Source of the DNA: Candidatus Poribacteria bacterium
GTDB lineage: Bacteria; Poribacteria; WGA-4E; PCPOR2b
Direction: 5' to 3'
NCBI GenBank assembly: GCA_965215015.1
Contig: OZ244042.1
Span: 4,160,001 to 4,224,000, forward strand
Length of the DNA: 64,000 nt
Shown: positions 11,501-19,646 of the stretch, piece after piece
Numbering within the stretch: the stretch's first letter is position 1
How the letters are laid out: each line of letters opens with the position of its first letter
Position numbers and translations under genes: made by a program
The notes under the pieces: model-generated
Seen by the model: only the letters and a program-made list of their open reading frames with translations
The model's database searches: none
Told to the model about the DNA's origin: nothing

Positions 11501-12628
11501 CTACCGGAACCAGTCATAATTGAGTCCCAGTGAACGATCCGCCAACGGCAACTCTACCCGAACACCACCCCGCGCCGAAGATTGTTTGAGTGCGATTTCA
11601 ACCTCAATTGCCACTGCAACCCTTCTACCTGAGTTTTTGGGTTCATCCAACCTACCTTCTATGCAATCTATCACATCCGCTAATCCGTAAATTGCACCGT
11701 AGGGACCGACGAACTGCGGATGGGGCCAGGGCATCTCCACTCGACTGACACCGTCAGGTGTTTCAACGTCCTGCCATAGCTTGAATCCGGTCGCCATTAT
11801 GGGAATAACTATTTCACCCGTGGTGCCAGTTACGCGTAGATGCGGTGCACCTGGACGAAAGTAGACAGCTAATTCACTTTCCGTAACCATCATCCCTTGA
11901 CCAGCAAATTCGTCGCTGCCCCCAGGTCCTTTGAATTCATCAGTGTCAGTGCCACGTCGCTCTTTGTCACCGATACCGATAACCCATGCGGGGGAGCTAT
12001 CTAAAAAGTATGACCAACTCTGATGTTGTGCGCCTGGGCGTGGTGCTTCAATGGAAACAACATCACCAATTGCACCGCTTGTAGCCAACTCCTTTGCCTT
12101 TGCAAACGACGGGTGAGTTGTCGAAATGGCACCACAGTTAAGCGGCACACCGGCGTCGGCGCATACCTTGACCATTCGGTCAGCTTCCTCAAGCGTGTGT
12201 GCCATCGGCTTTGCTGTCACAATCCCTTTTGCCCCATTCTCCACCGCCATACATGTCAAGTCTGCCCGTCCCTTGACGTTCGTGGCAACAGCGACGATAT
12301 CTAGCTTTTCGGTACGGAGCATTTCAGTTGCATCGGCATATAGTGTCTTGATGCCGTAACGTTCCTCGAACGCTTTTAGCCGTTTCTGATCGCGGTCAGC
12401 TGCAGCAACCAAATCTACCTCCGGCCGATCCCAGAACGCTTCGGAGTAGCTCGTGGGCAACCCCTCCCTGCCGGGGTGATCATGATGATAGATTTTGCGA
12501 TGAATCTCCAATTCAGGGGTCGGGCGGTCAACATCATCAATGTTGAAAAAATCGCCAATCCGCTCCGCCATATCATAGAGCATTCCCATCCAACCAAGCC
12601 CAATTACTCCTGCACGATACTTTGCCAT
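11501..12628 (-). CDS. Gfo/Idh/MocA family oxidoreductase
   Basis: GVIGLGWMG Rossmann motif; AKPMA variant of EKP; GGAGG RBS. Confidence 0.85.
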   Translation of the reverse strand: MAKYRAGVIGLGWMGMLYDMAERIGDFFNIDDVDRPTPELEIHRKIYHHDHPGREGLPTSYSEAFWDRPEVDLVAAADRDQKRLKAFEERYGIKTLYADATEMLRTEKLDIVAVATNVKGRADLTCMAVENGAKGIVTAKPMAHTLEEADRMVKVCADAGVPLNCGAISTTHPSFAKAKELATSGAIGDVVSIEAPRPGAQHQSWSYFLDSSPAWVIGIGDKERRGTDTDEFKGPGGSDEFAGQGMMVTESELAVYFRPGAPHLRVTGTTGEIVIPIMATGFKLWQDVETPDGVSRVEMPWPHPQFVGPYGAIYGLADVIDCIEGRLDEPKNSGRRVAVAIEVEIALKQSSARGGVRVELPLADRSLGLNYDWFR

Positions 12629-12671
12629 ATATCAACCCTCCTTACAGCATACAGTCCTAACTTTTCCCGTT

Positions 12672-13058
12672 TTACGTTTCACGTTCTATTTCCTGCATCA
12701 TGCCAGCAAATATCATGATATCTTGTTGGAAAGCTTCCGTAAAATCTTCTGATCGCTTTGTTTCAGCAAATCGATGGAATACCGTTTCTAATGCTTGGAG
12801 GAATCCCTCTGACTTACCTTCATCTTCAGCCTGTTGTTTCATTTGTTGAAGAAGCGTCATCTTAGCCGCTGTTTCCCGTTCTGTCTGTACTTCCTTTATT
12901 GATTTGTCAAATGTAACCCGAAGTGTTTCAACAATGTGGTATGCCATAGAACGGTTATATTTCTGTGAATCCCGTTTTGCCCCCTCATAAACATCAAGAG
13001 GTAACAATAGGCTAATTTGCTTCTTTAGTGAATCTTTGGGTTGGCGATATTCTTTCAT
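12672..13058 (-). CDS. Ribbon-helix-helix (Arc/CopG-like) DNA-binding protein
   Basis: QISLLLPLDVYEGAKRDSQKYNRSMAYHIVETLR fits the beta-alpha-alpha RHH pattern; ATG 13058 has a GGAG RBS; downstream of and co-oriented with the recombinase. Confidence 0.6.
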   Translation of the reverse strand: MKEYRQPKDSLKKQISLLLPLDVYEGAKRDSQKYNRSMAYHIVETLRVTFDKSIKEVQTERETAAKMTLLQQMKQQAEDEGKSEGFLQALETVFHRFAETKRSEDFTEAFQQDIMIFAGMMQEIERET

Positions 13059-13195
13059 TAAAATCTCCGAAATTATGGTATCAGACACTATGCTAACACT
13101 AACATCAAAATTATTGTATATAGCATATCATTAAAATTCGGAAATGTATAGTAAAATTATTCGCCATAAAATGCCATGCTTAACTATGTGAAATA

Positions 13196-14104
13196 TTACT
13201 CCCATGATATACTTTCCATAGTGCTGCGTAAATCTTGTTCGGTAGGCATAGTATAAATCGCAGTTGTATTCACATTAGAATGTCCTAAAATTTTAGACAC
13301 TCTATCAATAGGCTGCCCAGCATCAATTAAATTCTTGGCACAGGTATGTCTAAATACGTGTGGGGAAATATGCTTTATCTTCGCTATATAGGCATATTTC
13401 TGAATAATGTAACGAACACCACGGTCTGTCAACGGCATCCGTTTCTGCCCGTAAAACAGGAAGCGTTCTTTCTCAGGATTTGGACCGGCTACTAATATCC
13501 TTTGCCCATTGCTTTCAAACGATTTTAGATAATTCCTCAAAACGCCTATGACAGTTGAGTTTAATGGGACATTACGTCGCTTCGTACCTTTGCCCTCACG
13601 AACAGTAAGCATATTACTATTTATCGATAAACTAATATCGGAAATTCTTAAATTACAAAGTTCACTAACACGCATGCCGGTATGCAGCAGCATTGTAATA
13701 ATTGCTAAATCCCTCAAATTTCCGGACCTACGCACCGCTCGTAACAATCCCAGCTGCTCTTTACGTTCCAACGCCCGCGGGGCAAGTGGTTCTTCAGCAA
13801 CGTTCCGTATGCCTTCAGCAGGATTATCCAGAATTAGGTCATTTTGCTCTGCCCACTGGCAGAAACTGGAAATACTAATTAAACTGCGATTAATCGTCGA
13901 GGGCTTCTTGCCCCGGTCGAGCATTGCATTGCGATAGTCAATTATTTCCATCGGCGTGATACTTTCAAGTTCAAGTGCTTCCCCAGTTGCGTGTTGGAAC
14001 CACCGTGAAAATGAGCGAAGATCCGCTATATACGCTTTAATGGTCTGCTCAGATTTATCCTGATCATAAAGATAATCACTATAATCTTGCAATAAATCGT
14101 TCAT
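13196..14104 (-). CDS. Tyrosine recombinase, TnpI/Xer-like
   Basis: SAM-like N-terminal domain; intact catalytic set HTGMRVSE, GKG, HVFRH, LGHSN, TTAIY. Confidence 0.93.
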   Translation of the reverse strand: MNDLLQDYSDYLYDQDKSEQTIKAYIADLRSFSRWFQHATGEALELESITPMEIIDYRNAMLDRGKKPSTINRSLISISSFCQWAEQNDLILDNPAEGIRNVAEEPLAPRALERKEQLGLLRAVRRSGNLRDLAIITMLLHTGMRVSELCNLRISDISLSINSNMLTVREGKGTKRRNVPLNSTVIGVLRNYLKSFESNGQRILVAGPNPEKERFLFYGQKRMPLTDRGVRYIIQKYAYIAKIKHISPHVFRHTCAKNLIDAGQPIDRVSKILGHSNVNTTAIYTMPTEQDLRSTMESISWE

Positions 14105-14117
14105 TTTTTACCTCTTC

Positions 14118-14245
14118 TTATCGGACATTTTTTTTAAGAGATCAGTTATTATGCGGGTTAAAACGCTGAAATTTAGACAATCGTTTCACTTATCGGATAT
14201 TTTTCGGGGAAATAATGTCCGATAATGATAGTTATCGGACATTTT
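14118..14245. promoter_or_regulatory. Recombination site 1: core inverted repeat plus two accessory direct repeats
   Basis: AATGTCCGATAA (14214-14225), spacer TGATAG, TTATCGGACATT (14232-14243); direct repeats TTATCGGACATTTT (14118-14131) and TTATCGGATATTTT (14190-14203). Confidence 0.85.
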
Positions 14246-14255
14246 GGGTTTTTAA

Positions 14256-14296
14256 AGGGGAGATGCAGGGCTAAATGGCGCATCCCCTATTTTTTT
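14256..14296 (+). terminator. Possible intrinsic terminator just inside site 1
   Basis: AGGGGAGATGC...GCATCCCCT stem followed by ATTTTTTT. Confidence 0.4.
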
Positions 14297-14305
14297 GAAA
14301 AGTGA

Positions 14306-14335
14306 TCGACAGGGCGTTTTAATCCGTGATAGAAT
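14306..14335 (+). promoter_or_regulatory. Promoter for the cargo genes
   Basis: TCGACA-18 bp-TAGAAT with extended TG; GGAGG RBS before ATG 14381. Confidence 0.45.
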
Positions 14336-14380
14336 GAAAATGTATCGATACTATGTCACTATAGCCTATAGGAGGGCATA

Positions 14381-15040
14381 ATGCAAAGGTTAATGCCGAA
14401 GATAGCTGTTGTTTCAATGGCTGTCATTTTGATTGTTGTGGTTGGAGTGATTATCCATCTCAGGAACGCGCCTGTGGAGCATGTAAAGGTCTATGAGGTA
14501 CAATACGAGATCGAGGCGCCTGAGCCAATTGTGGTTAGATCTGCTTCGCGTGTGCCGGCATCGTCGGCGGATGTGTCAGAAACGGCCGAGGCGTGGAGTG
14601 AACCGGAAGAGGCAACACATTACGATGACACGCCGGTAACATCTGAATTTATGGAGGTGCGCGGTGCTGAGGAGGTCGCTGGGGCTGAGGAGGACGTTTG
14701 GGATGAGTTACCGGCTGCGGCAATGAACCCGCCGACCCCGCCGACACGCGGTCTAGTTACTCTAATAGATTCGTTCCCAGACGATGGCACCTACGAAGAA
14801 TTTGAATTGCGCCTAACGGATTATGCGTTCACATACTATCCGTTGACAATGCTTGAACCTGAAGAGGTTCGCCTTCTTGATCCACGAGCGAAGGCGGCAT
14901 ACGATCGACAGAAAGCCGCATTCCATAAAGAGTTCGTAGATATGTTCAAAGAGGACTTCGCATCTATGTCTTCCGATGTGCTGTCTATGATTACCCCAGA
15001 TATGGCAACCTTATTTGAAAAGGAAGGGATATTACCATGA
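14381..15040 (+). CDS. Hypothetical acidic protein with N-terminal membrane anchor (cargo gene 1)
   Basis: Strong RBS; N-terminal hydrophobic helix, Pro/Glu-rich linker, helical C-terminus. Confidence 0.75.
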   Translation: MQRLMPKIAVVSMAVILIVVVGVIIHLRNAPVEHVKVYEVQYEIEAPEPIVVRSASRVPASSADVSETAEAWSEPEEATHYDDTPVTSEFMEVRGAEEVAGAEEDVWDELPAAAMNPPTPPTRGLVTLIDSFPDDGTYEEFELRLTDYAFTYYPLTMLEPEEVRLLDPRAKAAYDRQKAAFHKEFVDMFKEDFASMSSDVLSMITPDMATLFEKEGILP

Positions 15041-15198
15041 AGATCGCAGTTGGTGTTGTACTTCTACTCGCGATTGCATGTTACTTCCTATTACCTGTCT
15101 TGGTTCCTCCGGTTGTAGCTCACGGCAGTTGTCAAAGCCTGCAGGCTGAATGGGCCCGCAAAGAGGCAGACTCGGATCCCCCTTTTTTTGTCCGATAA
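15037..15198 (+). CDS. 53-aa signal-peptide ORF, possibly truncated at recombination site 2 (cargo gene 2)
   Basis: ATGA overlap with the upstream stop; MKIAVGVVLLLAIACYFLLPVLVPPVVAHGSC...; its TAA is the last 3 nt of the site-2 left arm. Confidence 0.55.
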   Translation: MKIAVGVVLLLAIACYFLLPVLVPPVVAHGSCQSLQAEWARKEADSDPPFFVR

Positions 15199-15218
15199 CG
15201 TAAATTATCGGACATTTT
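15189..15218. promoter_or_regulatory. Recombination site 2 (core only)
   Basis: TGTCCGATAA-CGTAAA-TTATCGGACA(TTTT): same arms as site 1, different 6-bp spacer. Confidence 0.85.
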
Positions 15219-15277
15219 ACAAGAGAAGGTCTGTGTAGTAGGCAGAATTAGAATGAGTAATTTCAACATAGACTATA

Positions 15278-15306
15278 ATTTTACCGAAAACTCAATTCGA
15301 CGTCAA
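15278..15306 (-). promoter_or_regulatory. Sigma70 promoter pointing left into site 2
   Basis: Minus strand TTGACG-17 bp-TAAAAT. Confidence 0.55.
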
Positions 15307-15366
15307 CACTTTTATCTTCATTCATTTGCCGCCTTGTTCATTTATGCTGGACAATCATAAATAGTT

Positions 15367-15475
15367 GAGGAGTGCTCATAATTATTGTCTGAATCAGGAG
15401 ACTCAGGATTAACGGATTCACAAGATACCCAGTAACGCAGCACAGGCTTACAATACCTACTTATGAGCACCCCTC
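15367..15475. mobile_element. MITE family A, 109 bp, with 8-bp target duplication
   Basis: TIRs GAGGAGTGCTCATAA / TTATGAGCACCCCTC (14/15 match); AAATAGTT on both flanks. Confidence 0.8.
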
Positions 15476-15489
15476 AAATAGTTAGTGTA

Positions 15490-15709
15490 TATGACTTAGC
15501 ATACGATGATGGAAATGGACTCGTAGCCGCAGGTTTCCTAACCTGTGGGCCCGCCGTCCGTTGAAGGGAGACATAGCAGTAGGCATACTCCTTATGCCGT
15601 AACCCCTCGTCGCTACAGAGCCCCAATGGATCGGGATTTCCGCTGCGCTGCAACTTGCCCTCGATTCATCGGGGGTGCCTAACCTGTGATCACTGCTGCG
15701 TAATTTCTA
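15490..15709. repeat. REP cluster, possibly within a degenerate family-B MITE
   Basis: GTAGCCGCAGGTT-TCCT-AACCTGTGG; GTAGGCATA...TATGCC; CCCTCGATTCATCGGGGG; ends TGCGTAATTTCTA. Confidence 0.5.
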
Positions 15710-15748
15710 TAACAGATGCAATTCCCCTATTCATTTATGTGTTTGGAC

Positions 15749-15777
15749 TTGACATCAAATTCGATGAATGCTATCAT
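15749..15777 (+). promoter_or_regulatory. Sigma70 promoter for ruvX
   Basis: TTGACA-17 bp-TATCAT with extended TG. Confidence 0.65.
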
Positions 15778-15895
15778 CCGAACTATTAGCCGTCCTCGAT
15801 GGTATAGCAATCAGAGCCTCCCTGCTGACAAACATGTGTCAGTGATAATGGTAGTCACATCAACCCTTAAACTTACAAGCAATGTTTCACCAATT

Positions 15896-16345
15896 ATGCC
15901 GATTATTCTAGGATTAGACATTGGCGATGCACGGACTGGTGTAGCGATTAGTGATGAATTGGGCATTGCCGCTCACCCACTCTGCACGATTCAACGTAAA
16001 AGCAGAAAAGCATTACTGACAGAGTTACAGGAGTTGGCTACCGCTCACAAAGTCGAACGGATTGTCGTAGGGTTGCCCCTTCAACTCAATGGTGAGACAG
16101 GAGCTCAAGCACAGAAAATTAAAAAATTTGCAGAAAAGCTAGCGCAGCACGTTAATCTGCCAATCGTCTTCTGGGACGAAAGTTTCACCACCTTTGAAGC
16201 AACACAAATTTTGAGGGGCACTAAAAAACGGCGTAAAAAGCGAAAGCAAATCGTCGATCAGGTCGCTGCTGTACTGATTCTTGATGCGTATCTGGAGGAA
16301 TTACGCAACTCACGCAGGACAGATGATTCGGACAAAGGGACATAA
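15896..16345 (+). CDS. ruvX: YqgF/RuvX pre-16S rRNA nuclease (Holliday junction resolvase-like)
   Basis: ILGLDIGDARTGVAISD, VVGLP, WDESFTT, VDQVAAVLIL; start moved downstream of the promoter. Confidence 0.93.
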   Translation: MPIILGLDIGDARTGVAISDELGIAAHPLCTIQRKSRKALLTELQELATAHKVERIVVGLPLQLNGETGAQAQKIKKFAEKLAQHVNLPIVFWDESFTTFEATQILRGTKKRRKKRKQIVDQVAAVLILDAYLEELRNSRRTDDSDKGT

Positions 16346-16510
16346 AAAATGGGTATGGAAGATATTGAGATCGACAGTTTAGCTACATGTACTTCCACAA
16401 TCGTAAGCTTGATAGGAACCCCTTCATAACTGATTGACGAATGCAATTTTTTTCTTGCGTCAAAGCGTTTTTTAGCATATCATATGTTATTTGAGGCTAA
16501 TCGGAGGCCC

Positions 16511-16679
16511 TTGTTTGAACGCGGTTATAATAAACTGATCGGTCTCTTGGTGCCTCTGATTGTTGTGGGGTTGGGCAGTGGAATATATCATCCTTCCTAG
16601 GTTGGATCAGATAGCAACGTCAGATCCATCAGAAGTAGTTAACAAAAACGCCCGTAAAGCGATTGCCCGCCTGAGATAA
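16511..16679 (+). pseudogene. Remnant of a membrane-anchored HEAT-repeat-like protein (internal deletion)
   Basis: GGAGG RBS and TTG start give MFERGYNKLIGLLVPLIVVGLGSG; an overlapping frame gives ILPRLDQIATSDPSEVVNKNARKAIARLR*. Confidence 0.45.
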
Positions 16680-17216
16680 GCTGTCATGATTCCATATAAT
16701 AACGGTAAGAGGGCTTGTCTTAACAATGTTGTTGCTAGGAGGCATCGGCAGATTACTGAACCATTGACGTAAAAGTGCATAAACAACGCTAGCGTCAAAT
16801 CTACTATCTCCTTATTCCTAGATATGAAAATTATCACAGGACATAACGCCTGATACCCAATGAATCGGGGGTTTCCGTAGTCAAGAAGTTGACATCCATC
16901 AATCCCAAGCCGGATAAAATCTCAAGGGCGTGAATCCTGTTTCTTTTGAAACGCCCAAACCAATGATGTCGTAGACACTGTTTTTTCAACCGTTGCTGTC
17001 TCCGCTTTATTCCGAATTAGCCTTCCAGATGGAAAAACCCTCGCCTCCAGTCATCCGTATAATAGCACTTGACATCCCTGATTAATAGACACAAAACTCA
17101 TTTTCGCAAGGTCCCTTTAGCTCAACTCTCACATTCCCAGTTGGGGAGATTTCCAGTATCATGGGTTACTGGTTTCCATTTTTGCAATCGTTGAATTTTT
17201 TTAAGAACAAGCTTCA

Positions 17217-18383: not shown

Positions 18384-19646
18384 TTGGCTTCACAACAGAC
18401 CATTCAAAAAGAGGTAACTATCTCAGGAACCGGTTTAATGCTTGGCGAGCCGGTCACCCTCACATTCAAGCCGGCACCAGCAGACCATGGCATCGTGTTT
18501 CACCGGATAGATTTGCCCGATGAACCGGTAGTCCAAGTTTGTTCCGATAACTATCAAGCAGTTATTCCTCGTTGTACAAGCCTCCGTGCTGGGGAAGCGA
18601 CAGTCAATAGCGTTGAACATCTGTTGTCGGCATTCGCTGGTATGGGCGTCGATAACATGCGAGTCGATATTGATGCGCCGGAGTGCCCAGCATTAGATGG
18701 CAGCGCACTACCGTATGTGCAAATCCTACAGCAGGCAGAAATAATTCAACAAGATATACCACGCGCCCCCATTGAGTTGAAAGATCCCTTTGCCGTTTAT
18801 GACGAAGACAAACAGCTCATCCTACTCCCCTCGAACTCCTTTCAAGTATCCTTTGTTTATGATCATCCCAAGCTTCCTGCCCAAATTGAGACCTTTACTA
18901 TAGATCCAGAAATTTACGCCAATGAGATTGCTCCTGCACGCAGTTTTTGCTTTGCTGACGAGATAGAGTTACTCAGAGGGCAGGGCATCGGCAAGGGAGC
19001 GAGTTACGATAACGTCCTTGTCATTGAGGCTGATGGTACCACTAGTAGCGACTTAAGGTTCGCAAATGAATTTGTCCGACATAAGATGTTAGATTTGATT
19101 GGTGACCTTTACTTAATCGGAAAAATTCCCCAAACCCAAGTCGTAGCACTGAAGTCGGGACATGCGCTTCATGCACAACTTATCCTATCAATGGCAGAAA
19201 AAGGGTTGACACAACAGCAAGATCCTGTTGAAATCATGGATATTTTGGAAGTATTGCCGCATCGCTATCCGATGTGTATGCTGGATCGGATTATCGAAGC
19301 GGAGTATGGTAAACGGGCGGTCGGTATTAAGAATATCAGCTTTAACGAGCCTTTTTTTCAGGGGCACTTTCCAGAACAACCCGTTATGCCCGGCGTTCTA
19401 CAAATGGAAGCGTTGGCGCAACTAGGGGCATGGTTGCTGTTAAAGGAGCTAGGTGCTGAAGGGCAAGTCGGATATTTTGTGTCAATTAAGGAAGCCAAGT
19501 TTAGACGCCCAGTTATACCGGGTGATCAACTCCGGTTAGAAGTCGAAGTTCTGCGGAGACGCCGGACTTGGGCGTGGCTTGGCGGTAAAGCATATGTCGG
19601 CGATCAACTTGCGGCGGAAGGAGAGTTGTCTATCGCTCTGGGGTAG
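18384..19646 (+). CDS. lpxC: Bifunctional LpxC-FabZ
   Basis: LpxC motifs VEHLLSA, DGSA, HKMLDLIGD, SGH, then FabZ motifs LPHRYP, FFQGHFP, PVMPGVLQMEALAQ. Confidence 0.95.
   Translation: MASQQTIQKEVTISGTGLMLGEPVTLTFKPAPADHGIVFHRIDLPDEPVVQVCSDNYQAVIPRCTSLRAGEATVNSVEHLLSAFAGMGVDNMRVDIDAPECPALDGSALPYVQILQQAEIIQQDIPRAPIELKDPFAVYDEDKQLILLPSNSFQVSFVYDHPKLPAQIETFTIDPEIYANEIAPARSFCFADEIELLRGQGIGKGASYDNVLVIEADGTTSSDLRFANEFVRHKMLDLIGDLYLIGKIPQTQVVALKSGHALHAQLILSMAEKGLTQQQDPVEIMDILEVLPHRYPMCMLDRIIEAEYGKRAVGIKNISFNEPFFQGHFPEQPVMPGVLQMEALAQLGAWLLLKELGAEGQVGYFVSIKEAKFRRPVIPGDQLRLEVEVLRRRRTWAWLGGKAYVGDQLAAEGELSIALG

Follow-up and report, generated by a model that had tools for sequence, protein, structure and literature searches.

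The recombinase locus, its crossover sites and the cassette

We describe a tyrosine recombinase locus at 12672–15214 of a 64,000-nucleotide stretch of DNA (hereafter the window, position 1 being its first letter) from a Candidatus Poribacteria bacterium, which corresponds to positions 4,160,001–4,224,000 of contig OZ244042.1 in assembly GCA_965215015.1. The locus holds the recombinase gene, a small partner gene downstream of it, a composite crossover site upstream of it and, beyond that site, a 973-bp cassette with two open reading frames (ORFs) that ends in a second and simpler site. The source genome (G000; 5,943,281 bp) is one contig, 98% complete. The features are listed below; DR1 and DR2 denote the two direct repeats.

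12672–13058, minus strand: partner gene, 128 aa, downstream of the recombinase gene; conserved start ATG at 13058 (the ORF list had GTG at 13088)
13196–14104, minus strand: TnpI-like tyrosine recombinase, 302 aa, intact ORF with PF00589 and a SAM-like N-terminal domain
14118–14129, no strand: accessory half-site DR2, an exact arm copy (10-mer 14118–14127), 13 bp from the recombinase start codon
14190–14201, no strand: accessory half-site DR1, one mismatch (10-mer 14190–14199), oriented as DR2 and as the arm at 14232
14214–14243, no strand: core site 1, with a 12-bp arm (14214–14225), spacer TGATAG (14226–14231) and a perfectly complementary arm (14232–14243)
14244–15188, plus strand: body of the cassette, very probably inserted, which with one core makes the 973-bp unit; GC 0.49
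14256–14296, plus strand: terminator-like hairpin and T-run at the cassette start (RNAfold −17.1 kcal/mol; not listed by the pattern scan)
14306–14335, plus strand: promoter-like site TCGACA-18-TAGAAT with TG before the second hexamer, a consensus match only
14370–14375, plus strand: Shine-Dalgarno sequence AGGAGG, by sequence reading
14381–15040, plus strand: cargo ORF, 219 aa, with a hydrophobic N-terminal segment; acidic, with 42 D/E against 17 K/R
15037–15198, plus strand: cargo ORF, 53 aa, with a hydrophobic N-terminal segment; its stop codon is the TAA of a site 2 arm
15189–15214, no strand: core site 2, with a 10-bp arm (15189–15198), spacer CGTAAA and a second arm (15205–15214); no accessory half-sites

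The recombinase matches PF00589 at 1.1e-37 and has all six catalytic residues in place (R145, K172, H249, R252, H275 and Y284), a set that is complete in 25 of 25 aligned orthologues. The nearest NCBIfam models are XerC (196.8 bits, cut-off 335) and XerD (194.6 bits, cut-off 330), both matched below cut-off. The protein is the top match of its genome to the XerD model, at 194 bits against at most 74 for eleven others, and is the only strong Xer-like gene there; XerC or XerD is nevertheless the wrong name for it in annotation. Integron-integrase models score well under their cut-offs (TIGR02249, 91.8 against 265 bits; NF011946, 51.9 against 435).

Its closest characterised relatives lie in transposons and plasmids. 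BLASTP aligns it with the recombinase of a Tn5401-type Bacillus unit (L103) at 35% identity over 293 aa (E 1e-57), and long matches among plasmid records include recombinases of the Bacillus cereus group at 35–37% identity. An Ammonifex plasmid also encodes a homologue, beside which no comparable site was found. A protein that is 83% identical to the recombinase is attributed to Candidatus Poribacteria. A 12-bp TnpI-binding motif is reported to have been defined by Baum in 1995. In two Bacillus units (L102 and L103) the gene order is ParE toxin, antitoxin, site, recombinase and an annotated Tn3 family transposase, the order given for Tn5401/TnBth4 in the available excerpt of PMC7157771. Upstream of these Bacillus recombinase genes stand inverted 11-bp arms around a 6-bp spacer and two further direct copies before the start codon, and of the 11 arm bases all but one are those of the Poribacteria arm (10/11 identical). 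In sequence, arm motif and site layout the Poribacteria recombinase is thus TnpI-like, and we consider kinship with TnpI highly likely.

The plan shared with the TnpI internal resolution site (IRS) is that of two inverted arms (IR1–IR2), a 6-bp spacer and two direct accessory arms (DR1–DR2) between core and gene. A preliminary description of this DNA, made from the letters alone, had called the enzyme intact and TnpI-like; because the IR1–IR2 and DR1–DR2 plan is shared, the label is right more literally than that description could know. It had also taken the recombinase to stand alone, and this too holds. The Tn3-family transposase model PF01526 has no match in the genome, so the defining context of TnpI is missing; downstream of the recombinase gene come the 128-aa ORF and then a Gfo/Idh/MocA-like gene, with no tnpA there.

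Sequence reading bears out both core sites as first described: site 1 is a perfect 12-bp inverted repeat with a 6-bp spacer, and site 2 has the same arms shortened to the inner 10 bp of each, at a start-to-start distance of 973 bp. The preliminary description had overlooked DR1 and DR2, which lie as direct repeats between site 1 and the recombinase start codon. The exact 10-mer half-site occurs five times in the window, every time inside 14118–15214; with up to one mismatch it has 12 matches, against 3.85 ± 2.11 in shuffles. Across the whole genome the exact pattern of arm, 4–8 bases and arm is found in two places, namely site 1 and site 2 (reversed control, 0), and with up to three mismatches the site pattern is found four times (control, 0). 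By pattern scan site 1 is also terminator-like, with 13 pairs and a T-rich tail.

The two sites differ in their spacers. That of site 1 fits the spacer family of the resident sites of relatives (GATTAG, GGATAG, TGATAC and similar), and that of site 2 is unrelated to this family; the two spacers differ at four of six positions, and excision by site 1 × site 2 recombination is therefore expected to be poor. Beyond site 2 lies the flank that in relatives adjoins the single core. Judged by its sequence and surroundings, site 1 is the resident, dif-like crossover site.

In a MAFFT alignment with seven relatives, the sequence at the left junction follows theirs from DR2 across the core and no further, and that at the right junction follows theirs from the core onward through about 110 bp of conserved distal flank. 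Since the junctions match relatives only outward of the core, the 973 bp, which include one core copy, read as an insertion exactly at the crossover site, and on this alignment a precise insertion is very probable. The parts that had been described between the sites (terminator-like stem, promoter, ribosome-binding site and two coupled ORFs for membrane or secreted proteins) all have matching sequence features there. The cargo ORFs overlap by 4 bp and each has one strongly hydrophobic N-terminal segment. The 219-aa protein matched no Pfam or NCBIfam family, and neither cassette ORF has a recombinase domain by these models. Homologues of the 219-aa ORF occur in six of 175 other genomes of the phylum, in no case adjoining the recombinase; the closest (G017, 47% identity) lies elsewhere in its genome with no core within 1.5 kb. 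The GC content of the cassette equals the genome mean of 0.49. Rfam gave no match in 12000–17000, and the window has no tRNA gene.

Contigs of four of 21 runs (X1, X5, X6 and X8) were compared with window positions 12600–16400. In contigs of X1 and X6 the cassette is contiguous with both flanks; X6, from a separate study, represents a 99%-like strain in which the cassette is present and the site 1 spacer shows two base differences. One apparent joint in X5 (12683 to 15365) was discounted: its shorter side is 21 letters long, with a dispersed repeat at the end. Cassette contigs of X8 are deeper than the flanks, and nothing is drawn from this, as contig depth cannot rank the parts.

Two neighbouring features were seen along the way. 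Window positions 15362–15730 are a patchwork of short dispersed repeats, parts of which have 50–90 copies in the genome and 10–19 times the flanking contig depth in the four runs; the patch has no Rfam match and includes a long hairpin at about 15340–15470. At 18384–19646 a single 420-aa ORF appears, by eye only, to join an LpxC-like N-terminal part to a FabZ-like C-terminal part.

Conservation, chromosomal position and core sites elsewhere

The survey covered 159 genomes of the order, among them those of families f1 (28 genomes), f2 (112), f3 (11) and f4 (7). A recombinase orthologue is present in 40 of them (f1, 25/28; f3, 11/11; f4, 2/7; f2, 1/112) and is single-copy in all 40 carriers. We read 29 recombinase loci, that of G000 and those of 28 relatives. 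Of the 28 relatives, 27 have DR2, DR1 and the core together upstream of their orthologue with conserved arms, even where protein identity is as low as 54%; DR2 is kept in all 28 and DR1 in 27. The distance from DR2 to DR1 is 71–73 bp in 24 of these loci and 159–185 bp in three. A linker of 60 bp between DR2 and DR1 is conserved. The relatives carry one site only beside the recombinase gene, and G000 alone among the 29 loci has a second core within 1.5 kb of it, which makes cassette capture at the resident site a rare event. The preliminary description had pictured a stand-alone recombinase with private pdif-like modules. The orthologues display something other than a private cassette machine: beside them there is a single site, and the recombinase is a conserved, single-copy core gene near the antipode of dnaA.

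All 29 loci have the 128-aa gene (57–100% identity) after the recombinase gene and on its strand, and residues 1–49 of the 128-aa product are nearly invariant in alignment. Gene, four half-sites and partner are intact and syntenic in genomes that span 54–100% recombinase identity. By their sequences, recombinase, site and partner are a vertically inherited single-copy set in three Poribacteria families. Both genes are below the genome's GC of 0.49, the recombinase at 0.42 and the partner at 0.40. The partner matches no family of Pfam or NCBIfam. Its nearest clusters by language-model features are of the Arc/ribbon-helix-helix (RHH) type, with scores of 0.84–0.86, and as a lead only it may be a DNA-binding protein of that type. 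The AlphaFold2 model of the partner is all helical (pLDDT 76.4) with a low-confidence N-terminus, and Foldseek found no match for it in the PDB at E 0.001 or better. Complex prediction for recombinase and partner gave a score of 0.00, which counts neither way.

Chromosomal position was taken with dnaA as origin marker (dnaN follows dnaA in G000) and expressed as the shorter-arc distance in fractions of the genome, genome lengths being partly rounded. The recombinase site lies 0.476–0.498 of the genome from dnaA in eight of nine closed genomes of the genus, and 0.434–0.447 from it in four of six closed genomes from other genera, together 12 of 15; the Gfo/Idh/MocA and ruvX genes that neighbour the locus within the genus were not found at the loci of those other genera. 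Five of the genomes have a DnaA paralogue that wanders over 0.16–0.41, and because its position varies the near-constant position appears specific to the recombinase locus. This second DnaA-like gene (~395 aa, ~327 bits, just under the TIGR00362 cut-off) was seen in five of five genomes searched (G000:C1:3560085-3561158; G003, G004, G005 and G007).

In G000 neither PF01580 nor PF09397, the FtsK models used, has a match; PF01580 is found in four of the 159 genomes of the order, in a search that scored part of the candidates of each genome.

Sites like the core are scattered through related genomes. Each is a palindrome of 26 bp in which a 6-bp spacer separates two 10-bp arms that are perfect or nearly so; the arms are conserved and the spacers freely variable. 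With up to two mismatches the 26-bp site is found in 58 of 159 genomes (f1, 27/28; f3, 11/11; f4, 5/7; f2, 14/112), in up to 15 copies per genome; a control pattern gave 0. At no more than 15 copies per genome, repeats of the DNA-uptake or REP type were rejected as an identity for these sites.

Arrays were counted in 25 fetched loci, for which the ORF calls are crude. These loci hold 62 cores, which form 36 neighbouring pairs 298–4942 bp apart; 44 of the 62 lie within 30 bp of an ORF end, and 19 fall inside those ORF calls. ORFs homologous to one another are met in separate arrays, where the spacers of the adjoining cores differ. The arrays of relatives are far from the recombinase gene. The earlier idea of pdif-like modules has to be divided: core-bounded modules do occur in relatives, but site 1 is a core with two direct repeats and not a bare core.

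An interval between serS and a rhodanese gene illustrates the variability. In G000 (G000:C1:735476-735838) it is about 360 bp long and has no site. In G014 (L095, G014:C5:1514000-1532000) the same interval holds a 15.7-kb island punctuated by cores, whose genes include a restriction-modification pair, GmrSD, Schlafen/STAND, T5orf172 and HNH-Sel1; contents differ again in G004 and G015 (island loci including L094 and L098). The 26-bp site is a usable marker of variable islands in Poribacteria genomes. Many arrays are ended by a second composite site, which in others sits inside; in it a conserved linker of ~92 bp connects a half-site to a core, the spacer of which is often AATTCA. It was seen at ten loci (L069, L070, L084, L086, L087, L094, L095, L098, L099 and L100), none of which adjoins any recombinase gene. 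One of these, L084 (G132:C47:8000-27000), belongs to family f2, otherwise without the recombinase: seven cores lie on one 41-kb contig, and on both sides of the 7.7-kb array stand direct repeats taken from the 3′ end of another integrase gene, a Cre-like one (PF00589, 59.5 bits). This array may be a mobile island or a mis-binned contig.

Two further loci bear on rearrangement. In G032 a distance of 508 kb separates the recombinase from the conserved distal flank, and each of the two breakpoints falls at a core, an arrangement that, on sequence grounds, fits an inversion between two cores. In G000 the sites at 247,562 and 251,666 (G000:C1:247562-251691) are exact reverse complements, with spacers GAACAA and TTGTTC, and between them lie the tandem genes of two paralogous secreted proteins with FG-GAP repeats, of ~550 aa; just outside one core, before the first FG-GAP gene, stands a promoter-like sequence. 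At the orthologous locus of G011 (L093) there are four paralogues, and the spacers GAAAAC and GTTTTC again match each other. We regard the FG-GAP locus as a candidate invertible segment, its orientation being the same in G000 and G011. The preliminary description had proposed that surface-protein genes are captured, excised or inverted. A discrete insertion at a core and inverted cores around secreted-protein genes in G000 agree with it, and no product of excision or inversion was seen in the contigs of four runs.

Candidate functions of the system

The explanation we favour is a TnpI/IRS system without its transposon, kept by the host most likely for dimer resolution, which would also mobilise cassettes. 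We judge this account, taken whole, somewhat better than an even bet; the role in chromosome-dimer resolution, taken by itself, stands at about even odds. The recombinase acting on site 1 with DR1 and DR2 would provide a self-controlled, dif-like resolution of dimers in a lineage where FtsK was not found. For TnpI, DR1–DR2 are described as dispensable accessory motifs that confer resolution selectivity, and on sites with the core only TnpI is described as carrying out relaxed recombination, that is intermolecular recombination, deletion and inversion (both from the available excerpt of PMC2847244). Binding of the Poribacteria recombinase to its own DR1 and DR2 would likewise impose selectivity for resolution, and the place of DR2 beside the start codon would also permit autoregulation of the recombinase.

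The cassette would have arrived as a small circle in which a promoter and two ORFs for membrane or secreted proteins were accompanied by a core-only site and by a terminator, and would have been integrated by the same recombinase through core × core recombination. A terminator at the upstream end of the cassette would follow from a circular order of promoter, ORF219, ORF53, core and terminator. In TnpI, exchange begins at the arm distal to the accessory motifs (again from the excerpt of PMC2847244). For the insertion in G000 the spacers suggest exchange at the boundary between spacer and distal arm; exchange at that border would rebuild the resident site beside the gene, original spacer and accessory arms included, and would leave the cassette spacer in site 2. 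The cassette of the window would then be a miniature insertion like a mobile element that integrates by exploiting Xer (IMEX) or like a dif module, and the other core-only sites, in this genome and in relatives, would mark modules moved or inverted by the relaxed core-only activity.

Several observations weigh against this account. As the spacers of site 1 and site 2 share only two of six positions, a canonical two-step exchange between them is disfavoured. A cassette at the resident site is known from one species; a metagenome scan for further recombinase loci gave two, one of which has a degenerate remnant only. Contigs of the four runs contained no circle junction, empty site, site 1–site 2 joint or inversion joint, though contigs hide rare forms. 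Several genomes have sites and no match to the recombinase (for example G020 and G033, five sites each). The closed single-contig genome G003 (98% complete) lacks DR1 and the recombinase-adjacent core through a deletion from DR2 to the distal arm (L005, G003:C1:1932758-1936663; L071); its recombinase is only 0.14 of the genome from dnaA, and it has a single exact core, at the FG-GAP locus. Three of the 15 closed genomes place the site off the dnaA antipode, at 0.143, 0.29 and 0.36. In G000 the signals are weak for total GC skew, for gene-strand bias and for GC3-residual skew, and none marks a terminus at 4.17 Mb, the extremes lying at 0.67, 2.92 and 5.41 Mb; since composition skews mark no terminus at the site, it is from the dnaA antipode that the terminus claim is drawn. 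The order-wide FtsK search scored 17 of the 34–56 first-look candidates per genome. Family f2 has the recombinase in one of 112 genomes and FtsK in none of 112, and as it shows neither, a dedicated resolution system of this kind is not universal in the order.

A different reading, which was that of the preliminary description, makes the locus a dedicated machine for the capture, excision and inversion of cassettes, an integron-like or pdif-like platform with no role in segregation, its main task being to shuffle genes for surface proteins and other accessory genes. The layout invites it: the recombinase gene points one way from an attI-like site with two direct repeats, the cassette points the other way and ends in a second site, and attI1 is described as having L, R, DR1 and DR2 (excerpt of PMC8946536). 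The core-punctuated arrays of relatives, with their 44 of 62 cores close to an ORF end, the serS-rhodanese island, which reaches 15.7 kb in G014 and is vacant in G000, and the FG-GAP cores with spacers matched within G000 and differently matched within G011 would all suit such a platform. It would not, however, lead one to expect a near-constant position opposite dnaA with single-copy vertical inheritance, and only one of 29 recombinase loci, that of G000, has a cassette at the adjacent site, the arrays lying far from the recombinase. No recombination product was observed, the protein reaches 91.8 bits where the integron-integrase model asks for 265, and the sites are perfect-armed 26-bp palindromes unlike attC. 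An integron in the strict sense was rejected, the tests for IntI and attC having failed. We consider the platform without a segregation role unlikely.

More improbable is a purely regulatory reading, in which the palindromes are operators or bidirectional terminators, bound by the recombinase as a regulator or by its 128-aa partner, and the cassette came by ordinary insertion or duplication. Site 1 does score as terminator-like, with its 13 pairs and T-rich tail, many cores stand at ORF 3′ ends, in G000 one core separates the first FG-GAP gene from a promoter-like sequence, and DR2, abutting the recombinase start codon, is where an operator might be. But breakpoints fall exactly at cores both in the G000 insertion and in G032, where the two are 508 kb apart; the arms match a recombinase system with a published crossover site; direct half-sites cannot form hairpins; conserved arms with free spacers are as expected of a protein-bound crossover site; and all 25 aligned orthologues have retained every catalytic residue. 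Least probable of all, in our estimate, is a decaying relic of a Tn5401-like transposon or plasmid resolution module that has no host function and whose cassette is unrelated junk. Transposon and plasmid recombinases are indeed the closest characterised relatives, and the low GC of recombinase and partner (0.42 and 0.40 against 0.49) would suit a foreign remnant. A relic would hardly have kept gene, four half-sites and partner intact and syntenic across 54–100% protein identity, in one copy in 40 of 40 carriers and at a conserved position relative to dnaA, and no transposase was found in G000.

The favoured account can be carried further, with a doubtful but possible extension. TnpI and its resolution site may have been turned into an FtsK-free machine for chromosome dimers, with the accessory arms as topological filter, which in relaxed mode would also act as a duplex-DNA analogue of the integron (cassette capture, defence islands, flipping of surface-protein genes). 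It would be an independent case of an Xer-like resolvase with an attI-like DR1/DR2 site in cassette traffic.

Comparison with known systems

The nearest known system is TnpI/IRS of Tn4430 and Tn5401, which shares with the Poribacteria locus a homologous recombinase, inverted arms around a 6-bp spacer and two direct copies between core and gene (available excerpts of PMC2847244 and PMC7157771), and in which the site likewise overlaps the promoter region of the recombinase. It differs in its setting. The Poribacteria locus has no transposase, terminal repeats or ParE/antitoxin pair; it is chromosomal, single-copy, vertically inherited and near the dnaA antipode, with a 128-aa partner downstream. 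Half-site spacing also differs (the distances are 42 and 72 bp in the Poribacteria locus and 52 and 35 bp in L089), and Poribacteria chromosomes have extra, scattered core-only sites.

XerL/dif of Legionellales is likewise a single recombinase with a site of perfect 10–12-bp inverted arms, and in Coxiella the site directly adjoins the recombinase gene. The element LME-1 carries a mimic of the site and integrates at dif, where an intact upstream and a modified downstream site flank it; a mobile element with its own site, integrated at the resident site between two site copies, is also what the cassette of G000 resembles. The excerpt of PMC9765430 from which these points come does not describe accessory direct repeats, and Legionella has an FtsK homologue. 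LME-1 is a large element, against 973 bp with two small ORFs here, and here there are many further sites per genome. The likeness of XerL to the Poribacteria recombinase is one of description; Legionella plasmid homologues are ~36% identical to the latter.

The dif (pdif) modules of Acinetobacter are, as the available excerpts describe them, small modules of accessory genes that bring no recombinase, are framed by Xer-type sites whose 6-bp spacers vary and are shuffled between replicons, and in this they are alike. Unlike the Poribacteria sites they are hetero-sites for XerC and XerD, in alternating orientation and mostly on plasmids; in Poribacteria there are one recombinase, symmetric arms, chromosomal modules and accessory arms at the resident site. 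The cassette also has what marks an IMEX: it has no recombinase of its own, it lies at the resident site and two site copies flank it.

To integrons the likeness is one of platform. Recombinase gene and cassette point away from each other on either side of the site, and attI1 has two inverted boxes and two direct repeats, a proposed topological filter (excerpt of PMC8946536). As in integrons, the modules are single ORFs or pairs ending in a palindromic site, and the arrays of relatives hold defence-type genes and genes without assigned function. The differences are that the enzyme is not an IntI, that the sites are short perfect-armed duplex palindromes where attC sites are long imperfect hairpins, that the arrays are not beside the recombinase, and that the G000 cassette has its own promoter-like site.

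With each of these families the locus parts on one defining point: the transposon for TnpI/IRS, FtsK and the many sites for XerL/dif, the XerC/XerD hetero-sites for dif modules, and IntI and attC for integrons. A full-text literature search found no paper on this system, nor one on transposon-type, self-controlled resolution serving a whole chromosome where FtsK was not found. If the favoured account is true, self-controlled resolution of the transposon type would serve a whole chromosome where FtsK was not found, which bears on how directionality is achieved without a septal DNA pump. The traffic of Xer-type modules would be extended from mainly Acinetobacter plasmids, and from IMEX phages and islands, to chromosomal arrays of an uncultured phylum with defence-type cargo. 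With a layout between that of a resolution site and that of an integron attI, the locus would offer a concrete system for how cassette platforms arise from resolvases.

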